Below, piece after piece: positions 940-10,484 of a DNA stretch of 10,972 nt. The notes beneath the pieces were generated by a model. The model made no database searches and was not told where the DNA came from. It was given only the letters and a program-made list of their open reading frames with translations. Within the stretch, counting starts at the first letter, position 1; each line of letters opens with the position of its first letter. The stretch comes from a virus: UHGV virus genome UHGV-1700184; one strand, written 5' to 3'. Position numbers and translations under genes: made by a program.

Positions 940-1422
940 TTATTTGATGAGAAGTGAAGGTTTCCCAACTTTGAGTTGAGCACCGGGGATATTTATTCCT
1001 GCTTTTAGTTGGTGTTTGATTGCCAGTTTGTCGGCTTTAATTGTCGTTTCAAACTCAACGTATTCAGGAGGAAGGGCGCTTGAGTCGATGATTTCTACAA
1101 TTTCTGACGGTTTGCGGATTGTTACCTGGTGAATACCTGCTCGAATATTTTTCTTGCCAACCATTTCAAGCGATGACGCTATATATGATTTGATGCTGTC
1201 AATCTTATTTTGAATTACTGCGGCTCGCTCATTTAGTGACTTTGCCTCTTCCTTGAGGCGTTCAGCATAACCAGATTCGTTTTTAATGACGGAAAGAAGT
1301 TGCTCTATTTTATCGGTAAATTCTCCTTCCATGCCTTCTATTGTGTCAGCAATCATCTCTGGCTCTAAATCTGAATCCATCAGCTTTGCGTATTCATTGG
1401 CTATTTCATACAGTTTGCTCAC
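940..1422 (-). CDS. Siphovirus Gp157-family protein
   Basis: Track ORF 940..1428 (TTG start). Preferred start is GTG at 1422..1420, preceded by GGAGG at a 6-nt spacer. Sits immediately downstream of recT and overlaps its 3' end, the usual Gp157 context; family call from memory. Confidence 0.65.
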   Translation of the reverse strand: MSKLYEIANEYAKLMDSDLEPEMIADTIEGMEGEFTDKIEQLLSVIKNESGYAERLKEEAKSLNERAAVIQNKIDSIKSYIASSLEMVGKKNIRAGIHQVTIRKPSEIVEIIDSSALPPEYVEFETTIKADKLAIKHQLKAGINIPGAQLKVGKPSLLIK

Positions 1423-2308
1423 TGGCAACCTCCAGTTTCGCTTTGCATTCTATGTAAATGGCTTGTACGTTCTGCTGCAATTTCATTCCAGATGTCAGGC
1501 GATATGCTTCTGCAAAATATCGCTTCAAATCATCCATGTTTTCTGCCTGAGCCATTTCATCGCAAAGAAGTTGTGCTTTATCCATTATTTCCTGCTGGCG
1601 TTTCCGTTCATCTTCGCGGATATCTTCCTCTGATTTGTGCGGCATAACTGGTTCCTGATGCATACCTTCATCTTCGTTAAGCAGGTGAATGGCATTATCC
1701 AGTCGCTGGGCTTTAGGCCAGTATTTGCTGGCGCGTTTAACTATTGTTTTACGCGCCATCTCTTCCCAGAATGTCTTCCACGGTCCATTCTTTGCCTTGC
1801 TCGTTGCTTCCACAGCTTTAATTTCTGCCAGACTCATTTCTTCAGTGAGGTAGTCACCATCTGCTGTTTTAACCGTACAATAACCACCAACAATAGAGCC
1901 TCGCTCACCAAATGCGTTGTATTTGTGGGTTGGTGCTGAATCAAGGCCGTTTGATTCATAGGTGTCGTTTGAGTACACCAGTTTGCATTGCCCCCACTTA
2001 ATTGATCCTGTCGACTGTGCAAGGTGAAGTAATCCCATATAGCTGATATCAAGGCAAACCATGCCGTCGCGCGGAACTAGATAAGCAAGTTTGCTGGCCG
2101 GGTTTAAGGTGATGCCGATCGCCGCAACATTGATGATGGCGTTCTGTGCGCTGGTTGGATTTGCCAGTGCCGTTTTAGCCAGGTAATCGTTTTTCTGGAA
2201 ATACTGAATTGCAAACTGGCTTTCCTTAGCCCATGTCACCGTCTGTTCAGTCAATGCTCCGCAGAATAACTGCTCCTGCTGTTTAACGAATTCAACGATA
2301 TTGCTCAT
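1406..2308 (-). CDS. recT: RecT-family single-strand annealing recombinase
   Basis: Track ORF, 300 aa, ATG at 2308 preceded by GGAGAA. Length, charged C-terminal tail and overall sequence are typical of phage RecT/Redbeta-superfamily annealing proteins; start overlaps the upstream stop (ATGA). Confidence 0.9.
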   Translation of the reverse strand: MSNIVEFVKQQEQLFCGALTEQTVTWAKESQFAIQYFQKNDYLAKTALANPTSAQNAIINVAAIGITLNPASKLAYLVPRDGMVCLDISYMGLLHLAQSTGSIKWGQCKLVYSNDTYESNGLDSAPTHKYNAFGERGSIVGGYCTVKTADGDYLTEEMSLAEIKAVEATSKAKNGPWKTFWEEMARKTIVKRASKYWPKAQRLDNAIHLLNEDEGMHQEPVMPHKSEEDIREDERKRQQEIMDKAQLLCDEMAQAENMDDLKRYFAEAYRLTSGMKLQQNVQAIYIECKAKLEVASEQTV

Positions 2309-2616
2309 GCTGCTTCTCCAAAAATGTGTCTGCGCTTGAATATTGCGAAGGCATATTCAGCCTTAACTCTTTCGGTTATTGCATCCCAGAACCATTCAGC
2401 GGCTTTTTCCTGATAGTTACAGTCATCATCTTCCAGCCAGTCGATAGCGTCCTTAGTGTGTTCATCTGGTTTATATGAGCGAAGCATTTCGCTTATTGGG
2501 TCGCAACGTTTGCAGAGGCGATCAACTTCACTGTTGATTCGCTCGTAATCTTCATCAGTAAAACTTGCGATTATTTGCGATATTTCACGCTTATCATTCA
2601 GAGTCAGAATCATCAT
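2305..2616 (-). CDS. hypothetical protein, 103 aa (occupies the gam-equivalent position)
   Basis: Track ORF; two adjacent ATGs (2616 and 2613) follow AGGAGA. Stop overlaps recT start. No recognisable family; acidic, Trp-rich C-terminal half. Confidence 0.7.
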   Translation of the reverse strand: MMILTLNDKREISQIIASFTDEDYERINSEVDRLCKRCDPISEMLRSYKPDEHTKDAIDWLEDDDCNYQEKAAEWFWDAITERVKAEYAFAIFKRRHIFGEAA

Positions 2617-2701
2617 CTTTCTCCTGTTCTTTGTGCTGATTGAGCATTTTGTTCATCTGACGAATGAATTCTTCGTCTGACCAGTTATCTGTAAAACTCA
2701 T
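2594..2701 (-). CDS. hypothetical small acidic protein, 35 aa
   Basis: ATG at 2701..2699 overlaps the stop of the upstream Kil-like ORF (ATGA); translation MSFTDNWSDEEFIRQMNKMLNQHKEQEKDDDSDSE; 3' end overlaps the start of the 103-aa gene. Coding status is uncertain. Confidence 0.3.
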   Translation of the reverse strand: MSFTDNWSDEEFIRQMNKMLNQHKEQEKDDDSDSE

Positions 2702-2850
2702 TTCCTGCGATACCACGGAAGGTTGATAGCTGATTTCATCGCTTTATTTGCTTCAAGCCACATTTTTGAATCACCAATAAATCTGGCTATTACTGCTTTG
2801 TTCTGTGCAGCACGAAGCATCTGGTGATTGATGGCTATTTCATTGCGCAT
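2698..2850 (-). CDS. kil: Kil-like small protein (possible host cell-division inhibitor), 50 aa
   Basis: ATG at 2850..2848; translation MRNEIAINHQMLRAAQNKAVIARFIGDSKMWLEANKAMKSAINLPWYRRK. Lies immediately downstream of cIII as in lambda, and the FIGD-x-KM motif resembles lambda Kil as I recall it; unverified. Confidence 0.45.
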   Translation of the reverse strand: MRNEIAINHQMLRAAQNKAVIARFIGDSKMWLEANKAMKSAINLPWYRRK

Positions 2851-2966
2851 AATAAGACCTCAACTCTTTTCCATCCGTCACGTAATTTACGGGTGATTCG
2901 TTCAAGTAAAGATTCATTTAATTGGAAGGCACCCATGCGAGCGCCTCCCGCGATTGCGTAAATCAT
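2835..2966 (-). CDS. cIII: CIII-like regulator (FtsH protease inhibitor that stabilises CII)
   Basis: ATG at 2966..2964 preceded by AAGGAA; translation MIYAIAGGARMGAFQLNESLLERITRKLRDGWKRVEVLLCAMK. The core ESLLERITRKLRDGWKR matches the amphipathic helix of lambda CIII as I recall it. At 43 aa it is shorter than lambda CIII (54 aa). Confidence 0.7.
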   Translation of the reverse strand: MIYAIAGGARMGAFQLNESLLERITRKLRDGWKRVEVLLCAMK

Positions 2967-2990: not shown

Positions 2991-3959
2991 TTAGTAGGTT
3001 ATTTTTGTTGCGAATACTTCGCCTTTTACGATGGCTGTTATGATATTTTTAGCAACATCTTCTGATGCGCCAACCTTGATAAGGTCAGCAAGTATTTTGT
3101 TATTTACTTCTTTCCGGTGAGCTTTATCCTTTGCTCTACACTCTTCCTCTTCCTTGATTCTTTTTTCTTCTGCTATTCTGGCTTGCTCTTTTGCTTCAGC
3201 CTCGCGCCGGATTCGTTCAGCCTCCTCCTGTGCTTTTCGGCGTTCTGCTTCAATTGCCGCCTGCTTTTCTCTTTCAGCTCGTTCTGCTGCCTCTTTTGCT
3301 TCGCGCTGTGCTCGTTGCTCAGCTTCAATGCGTTCACGCTCTGCACGTTCCGCTGCGGCCTTAGCTTCTGCTTCTCGCCTTGCTGCTGCTTCAATTTCGG
3401 CTTTTGCCTTTGCTTCGGCTTCTGCTCTGGCTTTCTCTTCAGCTTCTCTTTTTAAGCGTTCTTCATGCTCTCGCTTTTCCTGCTCCGCTTTGAGTCTTGC
3501 CTCTTCTCTTTGGCGGTCAAATTCGCGATCCATCAAAATCGCTATTTCATGGTCAGACTCAATTTGCTTTGCGAGAGCTTCAGCTGCTGCCTTAGCTTCT
3601 TCTTCGGCTTTAATCCGCGCCTGTTCCTCTTCATAATCAGTAAGAGGCTGGCGTGCCTTGGCTTTCAGCTCATCAAGGCGATCACGCACTGTCTTGCGGT
3701 TAGCATCAATTAGCTTTGGAATTTCCTTCAGTTCAGCAACAAGGTCTTTGCCAAGACCATCGAGATATGTTTTCGTCTGCGCAACTTTATACGCCAGAGA
3801 AGCGATCTCCTTTCTGCCCTTTGCCGTTGTGATATCAGGCACAAAGGACATAACTTCACGTTCAACCTTTTGAAGGATTTCTTCAATCTGGTCGGCAGAC
3901 TGAAATACAGTCATTGCATTTGCTTTTTCAATAACAACTAAATCTGTTACTTCACTCAT
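2991..3959 (-). CDS. phage coiled-coil protein with a long E/R/K/A-rich single-helix segment
   Basis: Track ORF, 322 aa, ATG at 3959 preceded by GGAGG. A globular N-terminal ~110 aa is followed by ~170 aa of near-pure E/A/K/R repeats (AEAEAKAKAEIEAAARREAEAKAAAERAERERIEAEQRAQREAKE) and a short C-terminal domain. The DNA is strongly strand-asymmetric low complexity, which creates spurious ORFs in other frames. Confidence 0.8.
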   Translation of the reverse strand: MSEVTDLVVIEKANAMTVFQSADQIEEILQKVEREVMSFVPDITTAKGRKEIASLAYKVAQTKTYLDGLGKDLVAELKEIPKLIDANRKTVRDRLDELKAKARQPLTDYEEEQARIKAEEEAKAAAEALAKQIESDHEIAILMDREFDRQREEARLKAEQEKREHEERLKREAEEKARAEAEAKAKAEIEAAARREAEAKAAAERAERERIEAEQRAQREAKEAAERAEREKQAAIEAERRKAQEEAERIRREAEAKEQARIAEEKRIKEEEECRAKDKAHRKEVNNKILADLIKVGASEDVAKNIITAIVKGEVFATKITY

Positions 3960-3994
3960 ATATCCTCCTTAATTTGTATGCGTCAAATCCGCGC

Positions 3995-4306
3995 TCAGGC
4001 TGCTGAGGTTTCTTCTTTCAGGCTTTCGATATATTTACGTGGGTCGTCGTAACATTGGCATTCGCTGTACCAATCTACCCAGCGATCCGTAAGCTCCATC
4101 TCTGATAAATCTTCATCAGTAAGGCTCTCATCCCACATCTCAAGGCCGTTAGCATTGCAGTAGTCAGGCTTGATGTTGTTGTCATACTGAAAGGCATCAT
4201 AATCAGCCAGTGCATCCATCAGGCGAACACCCTCTTCAACACTTGCCACTTCTACAATGAACGGCTTCATAGGTACTTGCGGGATATGCCAGACACGTAA
4301 TTTCAT
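3995..4306 (-). CDS. hypothetical acidic protein, 103 aa
   Basis: Track ORF 3995..4402, but the supported start is ATG at 4306..4304 (MKLRVWHIPQ...) with GGAGG 4 nt upstream; the ATG at 4402 has SD spacing of only 2 nt and would read through a terminator hairpin. C-terminal half is rich in D/E/W/Y. Confidence 0.7.
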   Translation of the reverse strand: MKLRVWHIPQVPMKPFIVEVASVEEGVRLMDALADYDAFQYDNNIKPDYCNANGLEMWDESLTDEDLSEMELTDRWVDWYSECQCYDDPRKYIESLKEETSAA

Positions 4307-4318
4307 ATTTCCTCCGTC

Positions 4319-4346
4319 AAAAAAAATCGCCCTCACACTGGAGGGC
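4319..4346 (-). terminator. intrinsic terminator candidate (minus-strand sense)
   Basis: Stem GCCCTC (4329-4334) / GAGGGC (4341-4346) with a 6-nt loop, followed on the minus strand by eight T (complement of A 4319-4326). Lies directly upstream of the RBS of the 103-aa gene. Confidence 0.6.
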
Positions 4347-4408
4347 AAAGAAGATTTCCAACAATCAGAACAAGTCGGCTCCTGTTTAGTTACGAGCGAC
4401 ATTGCTCC

Positions 4409-5304: not shown

Positions 5305-5643
5305 CTATGACCATTTTTTATTTGGATTTCGTTGGTGAGCGTGATTAACAACTCTGTGCATTACATCCTCATATTTTTCATCTTCAATTTTTTCGACATC
5401 GCGAGGAAATGGTGTTGCTAATGCTTTGTCAACTTTGTCCATTGGTTCTTCATTAATCTTATATTCAGGACCGTCATCTATAGCATTAAATCCAGGTGTT
5501 ACACCGTTTTTTAATGCATATGCTATCCTTTTTTCCCATCTCGCTATTCTCCTCCTGTCTCGAGATGTAAGACCTCTATCAGATACTTTTCTGTTTTGTC
5601 CGCGGTCAGGATTAACATAAATAGTCTTTTTCACCATAAGCAT
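5305..5643 (-). CDS. hypothetical basic/acidic protein translationally coupled to N, about 112 aa
   Basis: Track ORF 5305..5649 uses a TTG; the first ATG is 5643..5641, 2 nt after the N stop. Arginine-rich segment SRDRRRIARWEKRIA followed by an acidic C-terminal half. No family recognised. Confidence 0.6.
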   Translation of the reverse strand: MLMVKKTIYVNPDRGQNRKVSDRGLTSRDRRRIARWEKRIAYALKNGVTPGFNAIDDGPEYKINEEPMDKVDKALATPFPRDVEKIEDEKYEDVMHRVVNHAHQRNPNKKWS

Positions 5644-5645
5644 AC

Positions 5646-5951
5646 TCAATAAGCACCGTACGGTAGTTTACTGTACAATTTTATTTTTTGGACTGCATGT
5701 ATTTTGTTTCCTAATGGGTTTGAATCTTTGTAATAAATACTTCTATTTTTTCGAACGACTTCTTCTTTCTTCTTGCAGCAAAGGCTTCCTAGTGATGCTG
5801 CTTTGTCTGCTCTGACGCAACCAGAGAGCTTTAGCGCAATTTTTCGCGCCAGTGCTTCATTACTGCGTCGCTCGGCAATAAGTTCTGCTCTGCGAGCTTT
5901 GTAGCGGCTTTTTGCCGTACCTTTGGATTCTTTCCAGACAATGGTTACCAT
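5646..5951 (-). CDS. N: N-family transcription antitermination protein (phage-21 type)
   Basis: Track ORF 5646..5981; preferred start is ATG at 5951..5949 (MVTIVWKESKGTAKSRYKARRAELIAERR) with AAGGAG 6 nt upstream. GTAKSRYKARRAELIAERR matches the arginine-rich boxB-binding peptide of phage 21 N as I recall it. Cognate boxA/boxB lie upstream. Confidence 0.85.
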   Translation of the reverse strand: MVTIVWKESKGTAKSRYKARRAELIAERRSNEALARKIALKLSGCVRADKAASLGSLCCKKKEEVVRKNRSIYYKDSNPLGNKIHAVQKIKLYSKLPYGAY

Positions 5952-6058
5952 GATGGTCTCCTTTAAGTGGCTTTGGCGCATGACGCGTCGAGGTGCTTAT
6001 CTTCTCGATCGCTGTCTTGCAGCTGCAATTCGCGCCATCCCCAAAACCACTCAAGTTC

Positions 6059-6266: not shown

Positions 6267-6917
6267 TTAAGGAAGGTTTGCTAGCTTGGCATCAACGACA
6301 ACGCCAATGATTTTACAGTTCCCATTGATTTCAATCATTGGGTATTGTGGATTGAGTGGTTTCAGGAATTTTCTACCGGCATCAATAACTAACTTTTTGA
6401 ATGTCGCCTCGTTTTCTCCTTCAAGTTTGGCGACTACCAGCTTTCCATTACGTGGTTCGACTTCTGGGTCGACGAGAATAATCATCCCCTCAGGAATACT
6501 CAGTCCTGCCGGGGCAGTCATTGAATCGCCTTTAACGTCGAGCCAAAAAGAGTCTTCAGAACAATCTACCGTTGTGTCGTACCAGTTATCTATTGCACGC
6601 CTATGATATGGCTCTACAGCTTCCATCCAACATCCTGCGCTTACCCAACTAATTAGAGGATACGAACCTCTTGGATCATGCCTGCTGTGATAGGCAATGT
6701 TTGAAAGACTATCCTCTCCTTTCAACAGGTAATCAGGGGAGCACTGCAAAGCCTTGGCTAAGGCCAATAGGTTTTCGCCATTGGGCTCAGTTTCAGATCG
6801 CTCCCATTGGGAAATAGCAACATTAGACACGCCAACCATCTTGCCAAGGGCAGCCTGCCTAATCTTGAGTTCTTTTCTGCGAGCGCGAATACGCTCACCC
6901 ATCAGTTGTGTATTCAT
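6267..6917 (-). CDS. cI: CI/C2-type prophage repressor (N-terminal HTH, C-terminal S24 LexA-like autopeptidase domain)
   Basis: Track ORF, 216 aa, ATG at 6917. HTH segment QAALGKMVGVSNVAISQWERSE; C-terminal domain carries the catalytic-type GDSM serine motif and a downstream lysine (VVAKLEGE). The N-terminal domain closely resembles P22 C2 repressor as I recall it. Confidence 0.9.
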   Translation of the reverse strand: MNTQLMGERIRARRKELKIRQAALGKMVGVSNVAISQWERSETEPNGENLLALAKALQCSPDYLLKGEDSLSNIAYHSRHDPRGSYPLISWVSAGCWMEAVEPYHRRAIDNWYDTTVDCSEDSFWLDVKGDSMTAPAGLSIPEGMIILVDPEVEPRNGKLVVAKLEGENEATFKKLVIDAGRKFLKPLNPQYPMIEINGNCKIIGVVVDAKLANLP

Positions 6918-7627: not shown

Positions 7628-7789
7628 ATGACAAAACGTCGTAAGAAATACCAGGAAAAAGAAGAGATTCGACACCCTGATTCACCTGAGGGATTAGTGG
7701 TAGCCGCAGCAAATAACAGGGCGTTCGCAGAGCGCCTTGTTGGTGTTTACAGACTAGCCAAAGCAGGAGTGAAACATGGGCGTCGTTAA
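7628..7789 (+). CDS. hypothetical small basic protein, 53 aa, between cII and O
   Basis: ATG at 7628 preceded by AGGAG at a 5-nt spacer; translation [53 protein letters not shown]; overlaps the O start by 14 nt. Not in the track (under 60 aa). Confidence 0.4.
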   Translation: MTKRRKKYQEKEEIRHPDSPEGLVVAAANNRAFAERLVGVYRLAKAGVKHGRR

Positions 7790-8597
7790 GTTAGCTGATT
7801 ACAGGCCTCAACTGGAGGTCGTGGAGCATCGCGTGGCAGATACCGAAGATGGTTTCATGCGCGTTGCTAACGAGATTACCGACAGTCTGCTGATGGCTGA
7901 TTTAACCGTCCGGCAGTTGAAGGTGATGCTCGCTATCATGCGCAAGACATACGGATTCAATAAGCCGATGGATCGACTCACAAACACGCAGATAGCAGCC
8001 ATGACAGGTATTCATCACACTCATGTTTGCGCTGCCAAGCGCCAGCTTATCGAGCGTAAATTCCTCATTGCTGATGGCGTGAAAATCGGAGTGAACAAGG
8101 TGGTTTCTCAGTGGATTAGCCAGGACAGCTTAACATTAGCTAAAACAGCTAATAAAACATTAGCCAAGTCGGCTAATGGGTATAAGCCAAGTCAGCTAAA
8201 CACAAAAGACAATATACAAAAGACAATAAATACAAATACCCCCTTACCCCCTAACGGGGGCGGCGATGGGCAGGTTAAACCTGAACGTCGCAAGGCAGAA
8301 CGAATCGACTATGAATCCTTCCTGAACGCCTACAACACCGAAGTCGGTGACAGACTGCCACACGCTGTTGCGGTCAACGAGAAACGCAAACGCCGCCTGA
8401 AGAAAATCATCCCGCAACTGAAAACGCCAAACGTGGACGGTTTCAGAGCGTATGTCAGGGCGTTTGTGCATCAGGCCAAGCCGTTTTACTTCGGAGACAA
8501 CGACACTGGCTGGACGGCAGATTTTGATTACCTGCTGAGGGAAGATTCGTTAACGGGAGTACGGGAAGGGAAGTTTGCAGACAGGGGGATTGCATGA
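7776..8597 (+). CDS. O: O-like replication initiation protein (replisome organiser)
   Basis: Track ORF, 273 aa, ATG at 7776 preceded by AGGAG. N-terminal HTH-type domain, a low-complexity linker encoded by the iteron DNA, and a conserved phage C-terminal domain. Stop overlaps the helicase start (ATGA). Confidence 0.85.
8116..8240. repeat. origin of replication: four palindromic iterons plus an AT-rich tract inside the O gene
   Basis: Iterons at 8116-8133 (TTAGCCAGGACAGCTTAA), 8136-8152 (TTAGCTAAAACAGCTAA), 8160-8176 (TTAGCCAAGTCGGCTAA) and 8183-8199 (TAAGCCAAGTCAGCTAA), spaced 20-24 bp, followed by A-rich 8200-8240 containing CAAAAGACAATA twice. Same architecture as lambda ori. Confidence 0.75.
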
Positions 8598-9970: not shown

Positions 9971-10047
9971 CCATCTACATCACTGAGCTAATAACAGGCC
10001 TGCTGGTAATCGCAGGCCTTTTTATTTGGGGGAGAGGGAAGTCATGA
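9967..10047 (+). CDS. hypothetical hydrophobic peptide, 26 aa (coding status uncertain)
   Basis: ATG at 9967 overlaps the helicase stop (ATGA) and its stop overlaps the ninB start; translation [26 protein letters not shown] has a single TM-like segment. The same DNA contains the tR2-like terminator hairpin. Confidence 0.3.
9996..10028 (+). terminator. intrinsic terminator (tR2-like) between the replication genes and the nin region
   Basis: Perfect 8-bp stem AGGCCTGC (9996-10003) / GCAGGCCT (10012-10019) with an 8-nt loop, followed by TTTTATTTG. Confidence 0.7.
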
Positions 10048-10484
10048 AAAAGCTAACCTTTGAAATTCGATCTCCAGCACATCAGCAAAATGCTATTCAC
10101 GCGGTACAGCAAATTCTTCCAGACCCAACCAAACCAATCGTAGTAACCATTCAGGAACGCAACCGCAGCTTAGACCAAAACCGAAAGCTTTGGGCTTGCC
10201 TTGGTGACGTCTCTCGTCAGGTTGAATGGCATGGTCGCTGGCTGGATGCAGAAAGCTGGAAGTGTGTGTTTACCGCAGCATTAAAGCAGCAGGATGTTGT
10301 TCCTAACCTTGCCGGGAATGGCTTTGTGGTAATAGGCCAGTCAACCAGCAGGATGCGTGTAAGCGAATTTGCGGAGCTATTAGAGCTTATACAGGCATTC
10401 GGTACAGAACGTGGCGTTAAGTGGTCAGACGAAGCGCGACTGGCTCTGGAGTGGAAATCGCGATGGGGAGACCGGGCAGCATGA
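10044..10484 (+). CDS. ninB: NinB (Orf-family recombination mediator)
   Basis: Track ORF 10026..10484 uses a TTG; preferred start is ATG at 10044 ([23 protein letters not shown]...) preceded by GGAGAGGGAA. Near-identical to lambda NinB as I recall it. Confidence 0.85.

Follow-up and report, generated by a model that had tools for sequence, protein, structure and literature searches.

Reading frame and composition of the gene

The stretch of DNA analysed in this work (the window) comprises 10,972 bp of the virus genome UHGV-1700184 and represents the part of a lambdoid, P22-like E. coli prophage that holds its immunity and early genes. Its minus strand contains, at 2991..3959, a complete coding sequence for a protein of 322 aa (36.8 kDa, pI 5.4), which is homologous to the Agt protein of phage phi80. 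The protein carries a long salt-bridged charged helix between conserved ends, and genes of its family lie next to phage recombination (Rec) genes. The coding sequence starts with ATG and its stop codon occupies 2991-2993. A strong Shine-Dalgarno sequence, AAGGAGG, was read 5 nt upstream of the start codon (3964..3970, minus strand). When the gene was compared with homologues at 62-73% nucleotide identity, the changes fell mainly on third codon positions of the minus-strand frame, in all segments, which identifies 2991-3959 as the coding frame. The 322-aa protein that an earlier reading of the bare letters (the original prediction) had placed here is thus encoded by a real gene.

The codon changes were unevenly distributed along the protein. 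In the homologous locus L050, 34 of the changed codons were synonymous and 8 non-synonymous within residues 1-115, and a similar bias was seen for residues 286-322 (15 and 3). In the charged spacer, residues 154-285, the numbers were 44 and 50; at 73% nucleotide identity 38% of the spacer residues were altered with zero indels. Judged by these codon changes, both ends of the protein are under purifying selection, and the middle part looks as a spacer would if selection acted on its pattern and length and not on its exact sequence.

Four amino acids account for 60% of the 322 residues (E63, A60, K36 and R33). The parts rich in E/R/K/A/Q cover residues 107-136 and 144-285 and are broken by a conserved island of other composition at 132-153. 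The original prediction had described an E/R/K/A spacer of ~170 residues. Its composition was confirmed and its charge pattern lies well above chance (z = 5.0), while the uniform charged run is shorter, with 132 residues (154-285).

At the DNA level the region is strongly skewed. The plus strand at 3117-3640 is 72% pyrimidine, compared with 53% for the whole window, and codons 154-285 (3105-3500) are 75% purine on the coding strand, the highest value among all 396-nt windows (99th percentile elsewhere, 62%). As a consequence of this skew, four antisense open reading frames (ORFs) are found on the plus strand, at 3117-3455, 3154-3636, 3191-3364 and 3465-3713, with low-complexity products rich in Ser, Ala, Phe, Leu and Cys. 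They are considered spurious because the codon-position pattern supports only the minus-strand frame. Another spurious ORF, of 73 aa, lies in an alternative frame of the coding strand (3173..3394, minus strand), so that five such ORFs are present in all; the original prediction had counted three.

The strand skew noted earlier was therefore observed, and the proposed repetitive nature of the same DNA was not. Apart from two 2-copy arrays, Tandem Repeats Finder (TRF) reported a single hexamer array, a degenerate one of the GCTTCT type (score 43, 63% matches). The direct-repeat families in the gene are low-complexity matches, 66-89% identical, and none of its in-frame 30-nt windows reached 80% identity with another. 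A quasi-repeat of 22 residues can be seen at the protein level, and its copies use different codons. The coding DNA is low-complexity and not truly repetitive. True DNA repeats were accordingly rejected as a cause of length variation, none having been found by these three approaches.

Relation to phi80 Agt and to TolA

The DNA of the gene is 98-99% identical to genes of phages Sf6 (gene 33), mEp043, mEp213, mEp234, HK544, IME10 (Orf53), Sf101 and CUS-3 and of Stx1a phages; Sf6 gene 33 is the same gene at 98% nucleotide identity. It is carried by 530 of 5,426 complete E. coli genomes. The near-identical records bear the names 'hypothetical', 'TolA', 'cell envelope biogenesis protein' and 'antitoxin protein'.

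A tblastn search with the N-terminal region led to the phi80 gene agt, which is annotated as 'anti-toxin for Gam; Mog (modifier of Gam)'. In BLASTP, the protein and phi80 Agt (YP_007947961.1), both of 322 aa, aligned colinearly over residues 1-322 with 51% identity (E 8e-64), and PHROG 1376 matched the full length (E 1.6e-109). On this sequence evidence the gene is already known, as Sf6 gene 33 and a homologue of phi80 agt. The phi80 gene directly after agt, gamL, is annotated as 'toxic without Mog'. Rotman et al. 2012 reportedly found that GamL inhibits RecBCD and SbcCD, that agt is its antidote or modifier, and that phi80 lysogens are phenocopies of recD and sbcCD mutants. That these lysogen phenotypes were reported by Rotman et al. 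is confirmed in a separate paper (PMC5862497).

No GamL homologue was found in the window, where a 103-aa ORF at 2305-2616 compared with GamL gave E 0.1. The missing neighbour lowers the claim of an anti-GamL antidote, not the claim of homology. An apparent Agt-RecE fusion of 804 aa (P0343), placed in the 90%-identity cluster of phi80 Agt, turned out to be an ordinary RecE-like 'exodeoxyribonuclease VIII' that contains no Agt region, and was discarded as a clustering artefact.

The original prediction had anticipated that annotation pipelines would call such a protein TolA-like. They do, both in the NCBI Prokaryotic Genome Annotation Pipeline (PGAP) and in several phage annotations, and the label is wrong. 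A cell-envelope protein of the TolA kind would be suggested by the Ala/Glu/Lys-rich composition, which resembles TolA domain II, and by nothing else in the protein. The match to TIGR02794 (tolA_full) scored 7.2 bits against a cutoff of 59.45 (E 2.6), and neither Pfam TolA nor TolA_C was matched. No transmembrane segment was detected (the maximal Kyte-Doolittle mean over 19 residues is 1.03, at residue 293). Moreover, the gene is located in a lambdoid pL operon, between gp17 and cIII/kil, and not in a tol-pal context. These results already refute the TolA explanation, whose remaining probability is negligible.

The family has a great many members. When 1.84 billion proteins, clustered at 50% identity, were searched with a profile of the N-terminal 115 residues, 5,695 cluster representatives were retrieved, 5,129 of them at E <= 1e-10, with typical lengths of 300-390 aa. 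The members share the N-terminal region, a clade-variable middle element, the charged helix and a C-terminal module of ~40 residues. The middle element is a short island in the enterobacterial clade and a helical segment of ~70 residues in most other clades.

The charged helix

The spacer of residues 154-285 (3105..3500, minus strand) contains 59% E/K/R, 27% Ala and 7% I/L/V/M/F/W/Y, with a net charge of -1. Opposite charges were found in 50 of its i,i+4 pairs and like charges in 3; against 2000 composition-preserving shuffles, the net salt-bridge score was z = 5.0. Like charges recur at i+8. The hydrophobic residues show no periodicity in the 3.3-3.8 range (maximum power 2.2, equalled or beaten by 69% of shuffles), and no seam of heptad or hendecad type is present. 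In its sequence the central region bears the hallmarks of a single alpha-helix of the ER/K type, in an Ala-rich version.

AlphaFold2 (AF2), run on the monomer with 110 homologues, predicted a continuous helix over residues 46-295 with a mean predicted local distance difference test (pLDDT) score of 85, exceeding 90 over most of 190-290 and dipping at 150-170. At 0.15 nm per residue, this helix of ~250 residues would measure ~37 nm, of which the middle 132 residues would contribute ~20 nm. The single-helix reading of the spacer is thereby supported computationally, and the look of a stable single alpha-helix or ER/K linker described in the original prediction agrees with both the charge pattern and the predicted helix. 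The feature recurred among 110 homologues at 34-80% identity. Their longest charged run had a median of 129 aa (interquartile range, IQR, 114-141) and their domains were separated by a median of 181 residues (IQR 165-195), and i,i+4 charge alternation exceeded z = 3 in 93%.

It was also considered that the long helix could form a dimeric or antiparallel coiled coil or a bundle, in the style of TolA domain II or Alacoil, which would yield a symmetric rod with two heads at each end. This is unlikely, and it does have points in its favour: the hydrophobic face of helix 46-115 must pack against something, the spacer is rich in Ala, with an enriched set of 19 A-to-A i,i+4 pairs, and a weak Ala periodicity of 3.67 was detected (power 5.2; not significant in a second analysis, p about 0.1). 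The AF2 model, being that of a monomer only, is compatible with it as well. Such an assembly is, in turn, poorly served by a spacer with so few large hydrophobic residues and no heptad or hendecad periodicity, and by the canonical intra-helical E-x3-K/R alternation, which is kept family-wide. On balance, the single salt-bridged helix was preferred.

Terminal regions and central island

In the conserved N-terminal region, residues 1-115 (3615..3959, minus strand), two short helices (12-20 and 22-38) were predicted ahead of the long helix, which begins within this region (AF2 pLDDT 86). R49, G70, R88, L95 and P105 are invariant in the family. The first part of the long helix, residues 46-115 (3615..3824, minus strand), is strongly amphipathic, with one hydrophobic face and a Fourier power of 9.9 at period 3.60, a value reached by 0 of 500 shuffles. 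Its hydrophobic face must be covered, whether by the two short N-terminal helices, by another copy of the protein or by a partner, and is likely a packing, dimerisation or partner-binding surface.

The two small globular domains that the original prediction expected at the ends of the linker were not recovered in the model. The N-terminal part is modelled as two short helices plus a long one that runs straight into the spacer, and would not be a free-standing globular domain. A small module is apparent only in the final ~40 residues.

The island that breaks the charged sequence, residues 132-153 (QIESDHEIAILMDREFDRQ; 3501..3566, minus strand), is conserved and not of the ER/K type, as seen in the alignment and the pLDDT profile. 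AF2 confidence drops just past it (150-170), a place that may act as a hinge.

In the C-terminal module, residues 281-322 (2994..3119, minus strand), a helix-Gly-helix precedes the strand-like end of the protein, G-x-[VI]-x-x-[TV]-x-I-x-Y. The I-x-Y/F terminus was found in 116 of 145 family representatives. Across the family this end reads G-x-[IV]-P-x-V-x-I-x-Y, again strand-like, with a nearly invariant terminal aromatic residue. When the C-terminal module was searched against PDB sequence profiles, weak, sub-threshold matches were obtained to RuvA domain III (E 0.2-1.2) and to UBA domains (E 0.27-2.2). The alignment of the helix-Gly-helix consensus (InnEALaaLiaaGiseeqAkkvitaIakG) to RuvA domain III is plausible as a motif and stays below significance. 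RuvA domain III is the RuvB-binding domain. The RuvA domain III/UBA likeness is taken as a lead only.

Other searches returned no assignment for the terminal regions. Pfam gave nothing above noise with the whole protein, with each end separately or with 53 N-terminal domains; DUF1351, a suspected match, did not appear in these searches. NCBIfam and PADLOC searches of the protein produced noise only. PDB sequence profiles of the N-terminal region yielded only Rad50 coiled-coil and apolipoprotein noise, and a fold search of this region in BFVD recovered relatives and no specific fold match. No relation to the neighbouring Gp157 or to GamL was detected when the N-terminal profile was compared with them in hhalign.

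Length conservation and alleles

Among 47 close viral loci, 37 were colinear at 969 bp and 10 carried indels that break the frame instead of preserving it. These were +1 at nt 337, -1 at nt 300, nt 897 and nt 794 (the last in two loci), and -14 at nt 473 (four loci); the loci concerned are L046, L092 (CUS-3), L007, L019, L042-L045, L061 and L067. The +1 at nt 337 marks the CUS-3/UTI89 lineage, and the CUS-3 record lists the gene as two separate ORFs, of 116 and 214 aa. PHROG 17211 (116 positions) and PHROG 21365 (214 positions) appear to be families built from such frameshifted halves.

A similar picture was obtained from 60 evenly spread E. coli records, of which 48 had 969 bp, 4 had 970, 1 had 966, 2 had 955 and 5 were partial. 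The main protein cluster at 90% identity contains 471 members of 322 aa. Homologues from Enterobacter, Cronobacter, Citrobacter and Salmonella, at 76-79% protein identity, almost all have 322 aa, those of the phi80-like group have 323 or 334 aa, and 75 of 80 loci of the Pseudomonas D3 clade encode 354 aa. Rare in-frame alleles of 333, 309, 306, 304, 300 (HK633), 296, 290, 275 and 245 aa were also detected. The 333-aa allele arose by an 11-residue tandem duplication. The 245-aa allele (P0163-P0181, e.g. P0169) lacks residues 127-203, that is, the island, which is missing from it entirely, and the first third of the charged helix. This natural variant with a short spacer was seen in many contigs of E. 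coli as well as in Salmonella Saintpaul, and seems to persist.

Length is therefore conserved, not hypervariable, in the present lineage, and this fits the lack of true DNA repeats. Only the Acinetobacter clade (L177-L256) is clearly polymorphic, with 15 lengths between 309 and 368 aa in 73 loci at 86-99% identity of the N-terminal domain; true DNA repeats in that clade are one possibility for its origin. The original prediction had expected a variable linker and had proposed comparing repeat length among homologues. That comparison speaks largely against it: the length is mostly invariant, with 969 bp in about 80% of the sampled E. coli copies and 322 aa kept at 73% nucleotide identity.

The leftward operon

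Genes of the window were assigned by Pfam and PHROG matches. The leftward, minus-strand operon reads, in order, an N-like gene, a gene for a 149-aa membrane protein, a gp17-type gene, the agt-like gene, cIII, kil, two small ORFs, RecT, Sipho_Gp157 and Ead/Ea22. The P22 gp17-type superinfection-exclusion gene (3995..4402, minus strand; PF17420, E 5.6e-55) lies upstream, 35 nt from the start codon of the agt-like gene. On the other side, cIII (43 aa; 2835-2966, minus strand; PF02061, E 4e-15) begins 24 nt past the agt-like gene and overlaps the start of kil (2698-2850, minus strand) by 16 nt. The cIII ORF is easily overlooked, being shorter than the 50-aa cut-off of default ORF lists.

The genes at 940..2966 (minus strand) form the downstream part of the operon and include the Rec module with which the Agt-like family travels. 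They comprise, besides cIII and kil, a small 40-aa ORF, a 103-aa acidic ORF (2305-2616, minus strand) that belongs to phrog_3486, has no Pfam match and overlaps the RecT start by ATGA, RecT itself (1406-2308, minus strand) and Sipho_Gp157 (940-1428, minus strand), for which PHROG 253 gives the label 'Mu Gam-like end protection'. The phrog_3486 ORF sits just upstream of RecT, where phi80 has gamL, and is a candidate for an unrecognised Rec-module or anti-nuclease gene.

At the other end of the operon, the ORF at 5646-5981 (minus strand) contains an arginine-rich motif, GTAKSRYKARRAELIAERR, with a weak match to PF25694 N_peptide (E 0.004, below cutoff). We take GTAKSRYKARRAELIAERR to be the boxB-binding peptide of the phage 21 N protein, and the ORF is probably the N antiterminator. 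The adjoining 114-aa ORF with a TTG start (5305-5649) had no family match. The repressor gene cI is located at 6267-6917 (minus strand), and the rightward genes are cro, cII, a lambda-O-type replication gene (7776-8597), a DnaB-type helicase gene and NinB (10026-10484).

The Sf6 annotation (locus L257, 5482-5510) places two features directly before gene 33, namely tL2A, a terminator of the lambda type, and bsq4, a 'boundary sequence' of the mosaic. Since Sf6 has tL2A/bsq4 where the present window has gp17, 35 nt away, the gene sits at a junction between recombined segments of the mosaic.

Linkage to phage recombination modules

For 240 IMG/VR loci representing three clades, the ORFs on the downstream side were grouped into clusters, the main ones of which were typed with Pfam as RecT, YqaJ, ERF or Rad52/22. 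Counts were made on the 206 loci with at least 2.5 kb of downstream sequence. A gene for a single-strand annealing protein (SSAP), an exonuclease or a single-stranded DNA-binding protein (SSB) was found downstream in 67 of 72 E. coli-type, 76 of 77 D3-type (Pseudomonas) and 56 of 57 Acinetobacter-type loci, about 96% overall. In the D3-type and Acinetobacter-type loci the SSAP gene starts 8-11 nt past the stop codon of the family member. In the E. coli clade, with N-terminal domains 99-100% identical, the neighbour is ERF (27 loci), a Rad52-type gene (24) or RecT (15); these loci showed 976-981 per mille nucleotide identity across the gene where it was measured. GamL was present in 5 of the 72 E. 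coli-type loci. The gene coexists with three unrelated types of anti-RecBCD protein: GamL in phi80, Abc2 in Sf6 and Gp157 in the present window.

Annotated phages gave a consistent picture: in each of those examined, recombination genes adjoin the family member and point in the same direction. The order is agt - gamL - recT - exo in phi80, orf53 - Erf - YqaJ exonuclease in D3, and 33 - cIII - kil - two small ORFs - Erf - SSB - endonuclease - Abc2 in Sf6. In Yersinia vB_YenM_210.17 the member is followed by cIII, two small ORFs, RecE and RecT; in Serratia Eta by a small ORF, ExoVIII, a small ORF and Bet; in Alcaligenes Piluca by Bet and exo. Acinetobacter phi5013-M1 has the member, a 252-aa protein and exo, and Vibrio 1.036.O has the member, ExoVIII, a small ORF and an OB-fold protein, while in Vibrio phiV039C the member comes last, after ERF and SSB. 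Neither Agt nor the family is mentioned in a 2025 survey of lambdoid Rec modules (PMC12315714), and no mention of the gene or of Agt was found in the Sf6 evolution paper.

These data bear on two further explanations. The protein could be a dedicated antidote to one toxic early protein, in a toxin-antitoxin arrangement, the toxin being GamL in phi80 and here an unrecognised small neighbour, e.g. the phrog_3486 product or Kil. The phi80 annotations ('anti-toxin for Gam', 'toxic without Mog') point in this direction, as do the 103-aa acidic ORF in the gamL slot and the adjacency of kil to the gene in many lambdoid loci. This is nevertheless distinctly improbable. GamL is rare among the E. coli-type loci, the phrog_3486 product is unlike GamL and its gene is absent from most loci with the same agt allele, and the next gene in the Pseudomonas, Acinetobacter and Alcaligenes clades is the SSAP gene, 8-11 nt downstream. 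A 37-nm rod would also be unusual for an antitoxin.

Alternatively, an anti-defence or decoy function unrelated to recombination might be imagined, e.g. mimicry of SMC/Rad50-like coiled coils, the position being merely one where lambdoid accessory genes gather. The accessory neighbours (gp17 sie, ral and Lar), the dispensability of the gene in many prophages and very weak coiled-coil matches to Rad50 (E 0.08) and LmuB (E 0.038) are compatible with such a role, which is still less probable than the antidote. The Rad50 and LmuB matches are at noise level and nothing passed in PADLOC (best matches, LmuB E 0.038 and Cas8a E 0.019). In addition, the linkage to SSAP and exonuclease genes persists in non-lambdoid phages of Pseudomonas, Acinetobacter, Vibrio and Alcaligenes with other operon layouts.

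Proposed role

The reading that we favour, with a probability of roughly 45%, is that the Agt-like protein is a rod-like cytoplasmic adaptor that accompanies the Rec module, binds two partners with its ends at a separation set by the spacer, and tunes host end-processing nucleases. Its foundations are the homology, architecture, charge pattern, length conservation and synteny described above. The protein would be produced from the early-left (pL) operon of the phage, and its two ends would bind two different partners. The salt-bridged helix of ~130 residues would serve as a semi-rigid spacer of fixed length that sets their separation, ~20 nm inside a helix of ~37 nm. Such an adaptor would act alongside the phage recombination and anti-nuclease module.

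As for the partners, we infer that the adaptor would most likely tune host double-strand-end processing, by RecBCD and/or SbcCD, and not one phage recombinase. Neither a particular SSAP nor GamL would qualify as the partner, since they differ between loci or are missing; a target common to the hosts is likelier, either RecBCD and/or SbcCD or some other constant of end processing. The relief of the toxicity of GamL, a RecBCD/SbcCD inhibitor, by phi80 Agt would then be a special case of a host-directed role. The original view that no function can be inferred seems too strict, since a function is partly inferable from the 51% identity to phi80 Agt together with the synteny.

Several points weigh against the adaptor role. 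No family of known function was matched by either terminal region, and the phi80 result is genetic. Moreover, the phi80 lysogen phenotype was not seen in MG1655 (PMC5862497). The frameshifts in 10 of 47 close loci indicate that the gene is dispensable, at least in prophages, and well-studied Rec modules, e.g. those of lambda and P22, have no family member. The synteny may partly mirror mosaic operon order, and in the E. coli clade the gene is 0.5 kb and 2-3 genes away from the SSAP gene. Concerning the spacer, its 27% Ala exceeds that of classic ER/K motifs, and AF2, run as a monomer only, does not distinguish a single helix from a coiled coil.

A more far-reaching version appears doubtful. 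It holds that Agt-like proteins are a hitherto overlooked, near-universal accessory of proteobacterial phage Rec modules, in which a ruler or tether of ~37 nm would contact with both its ends a host machine for double-strand ends, be it RecBCD and/or SbcCD or the fork/SSB/RuvB apparatus, and would reprogram it whatever the annealing or anti-RecBCD protein, with the fixed helix length being required and the phi80 antidote being a special case.

What may be new here is the recognition of a very large family with a fixed-length salt-bridged helix and a near-universal linkage to Rec modules. The wrong name, TolA, is attached to the gene in roughly a tenth of the complete E. coli genomes and in thousands of phage lineages of proteobacteria; renaming would remove a recurrent annotation error, plus the PHROG families apparently built from frameshifted halves. 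The family is an unusually clean natural case of a fixed-length salt-bridged helix in a bacterial virus, tied by gene order to recombination and anti-nuclease modules with all types of annealing protein, and its natural alleles of -77, -22 and +11 residues provide a ready linker-length series. If a modulation of RecBCD or SbcCD is true, it would be relevant to recombineering toolkits and to the question of how temperate phages limit the toxic effects of the nuclease inhibitors that they encode.

Comparison with known systems

The spacer shares with the ER/K single alpha-helix domains of myosin VI, myosin X and caldesmon and with the synthetic, rigid A(EAAAK)nA linkers the i,i+4 salt bridges between Glu and Lys/Arg and the scarcity of hydrophobic residues, as well as a near-zero net charge and the role of a fixed-length spacer. 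Classic ER/K motifs contain about 75% or more E/K/R, a content that the present spacer, with 59% E/K/R and 27% Ala, does not reach. It is more Ala-rich and less charged than those motifs and of bacterial-viral origin. It thus lies between ER/K and (EAAAK)n, and its stable monomeric helix is a prediction here. TolA shares with the protein only an Ala/Glu/Lys-rich, helix-forming low-complexity stretch, and neither its anchor nor its C-terminal domain is present.

The closest counterparts, Sf6 gene 33 and those of mEp043, mEp213, mEp234, HK544 and IME10 (Orf53), have no assigned function, and the same holds for the HK633 protein, of 300 aa, which differs by an in-frame deletion of 22 residues. 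Phage D3 orf53, a family member according to the Sf6 annotation, has the same architecture and likewise no assigned function; its product has 354 aa, and an extra helical middle domain of ~70 residues replaces the short island.

The nearest system with an attributed activity is phi80 (Lula) Agt (Rotman et al. 2012, J Bacteriol 194:6802), which has the same N-terminal region, an ESDHE-type island, the charged helix and the C-terminal module ending in I-x-Y. Both genes belong to the pL operon and lie upstream of a RecT-type Rec module. They differ in that the N-terminal 113 residues are only 40% identical, and in that agt is followed by gamL in phi80 and by cIII, kil, two small ORFs, RecT and Gp157 in the present window. 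The antidote activity is attributed to phi80 Agt and, by homology, is putative for the present protein. With the RecBCD modulators P22 Abc2, lambda Gam and phi80 GamL, the protein shares the operon neighbourhood and possibly the theme of end processing (PMC12315714). Those modulators are small (about 90-140 aa) and have no sequence or profile similarity to it, and genes of the present type coexist with GamL or Abc2 rather than substituting for either.

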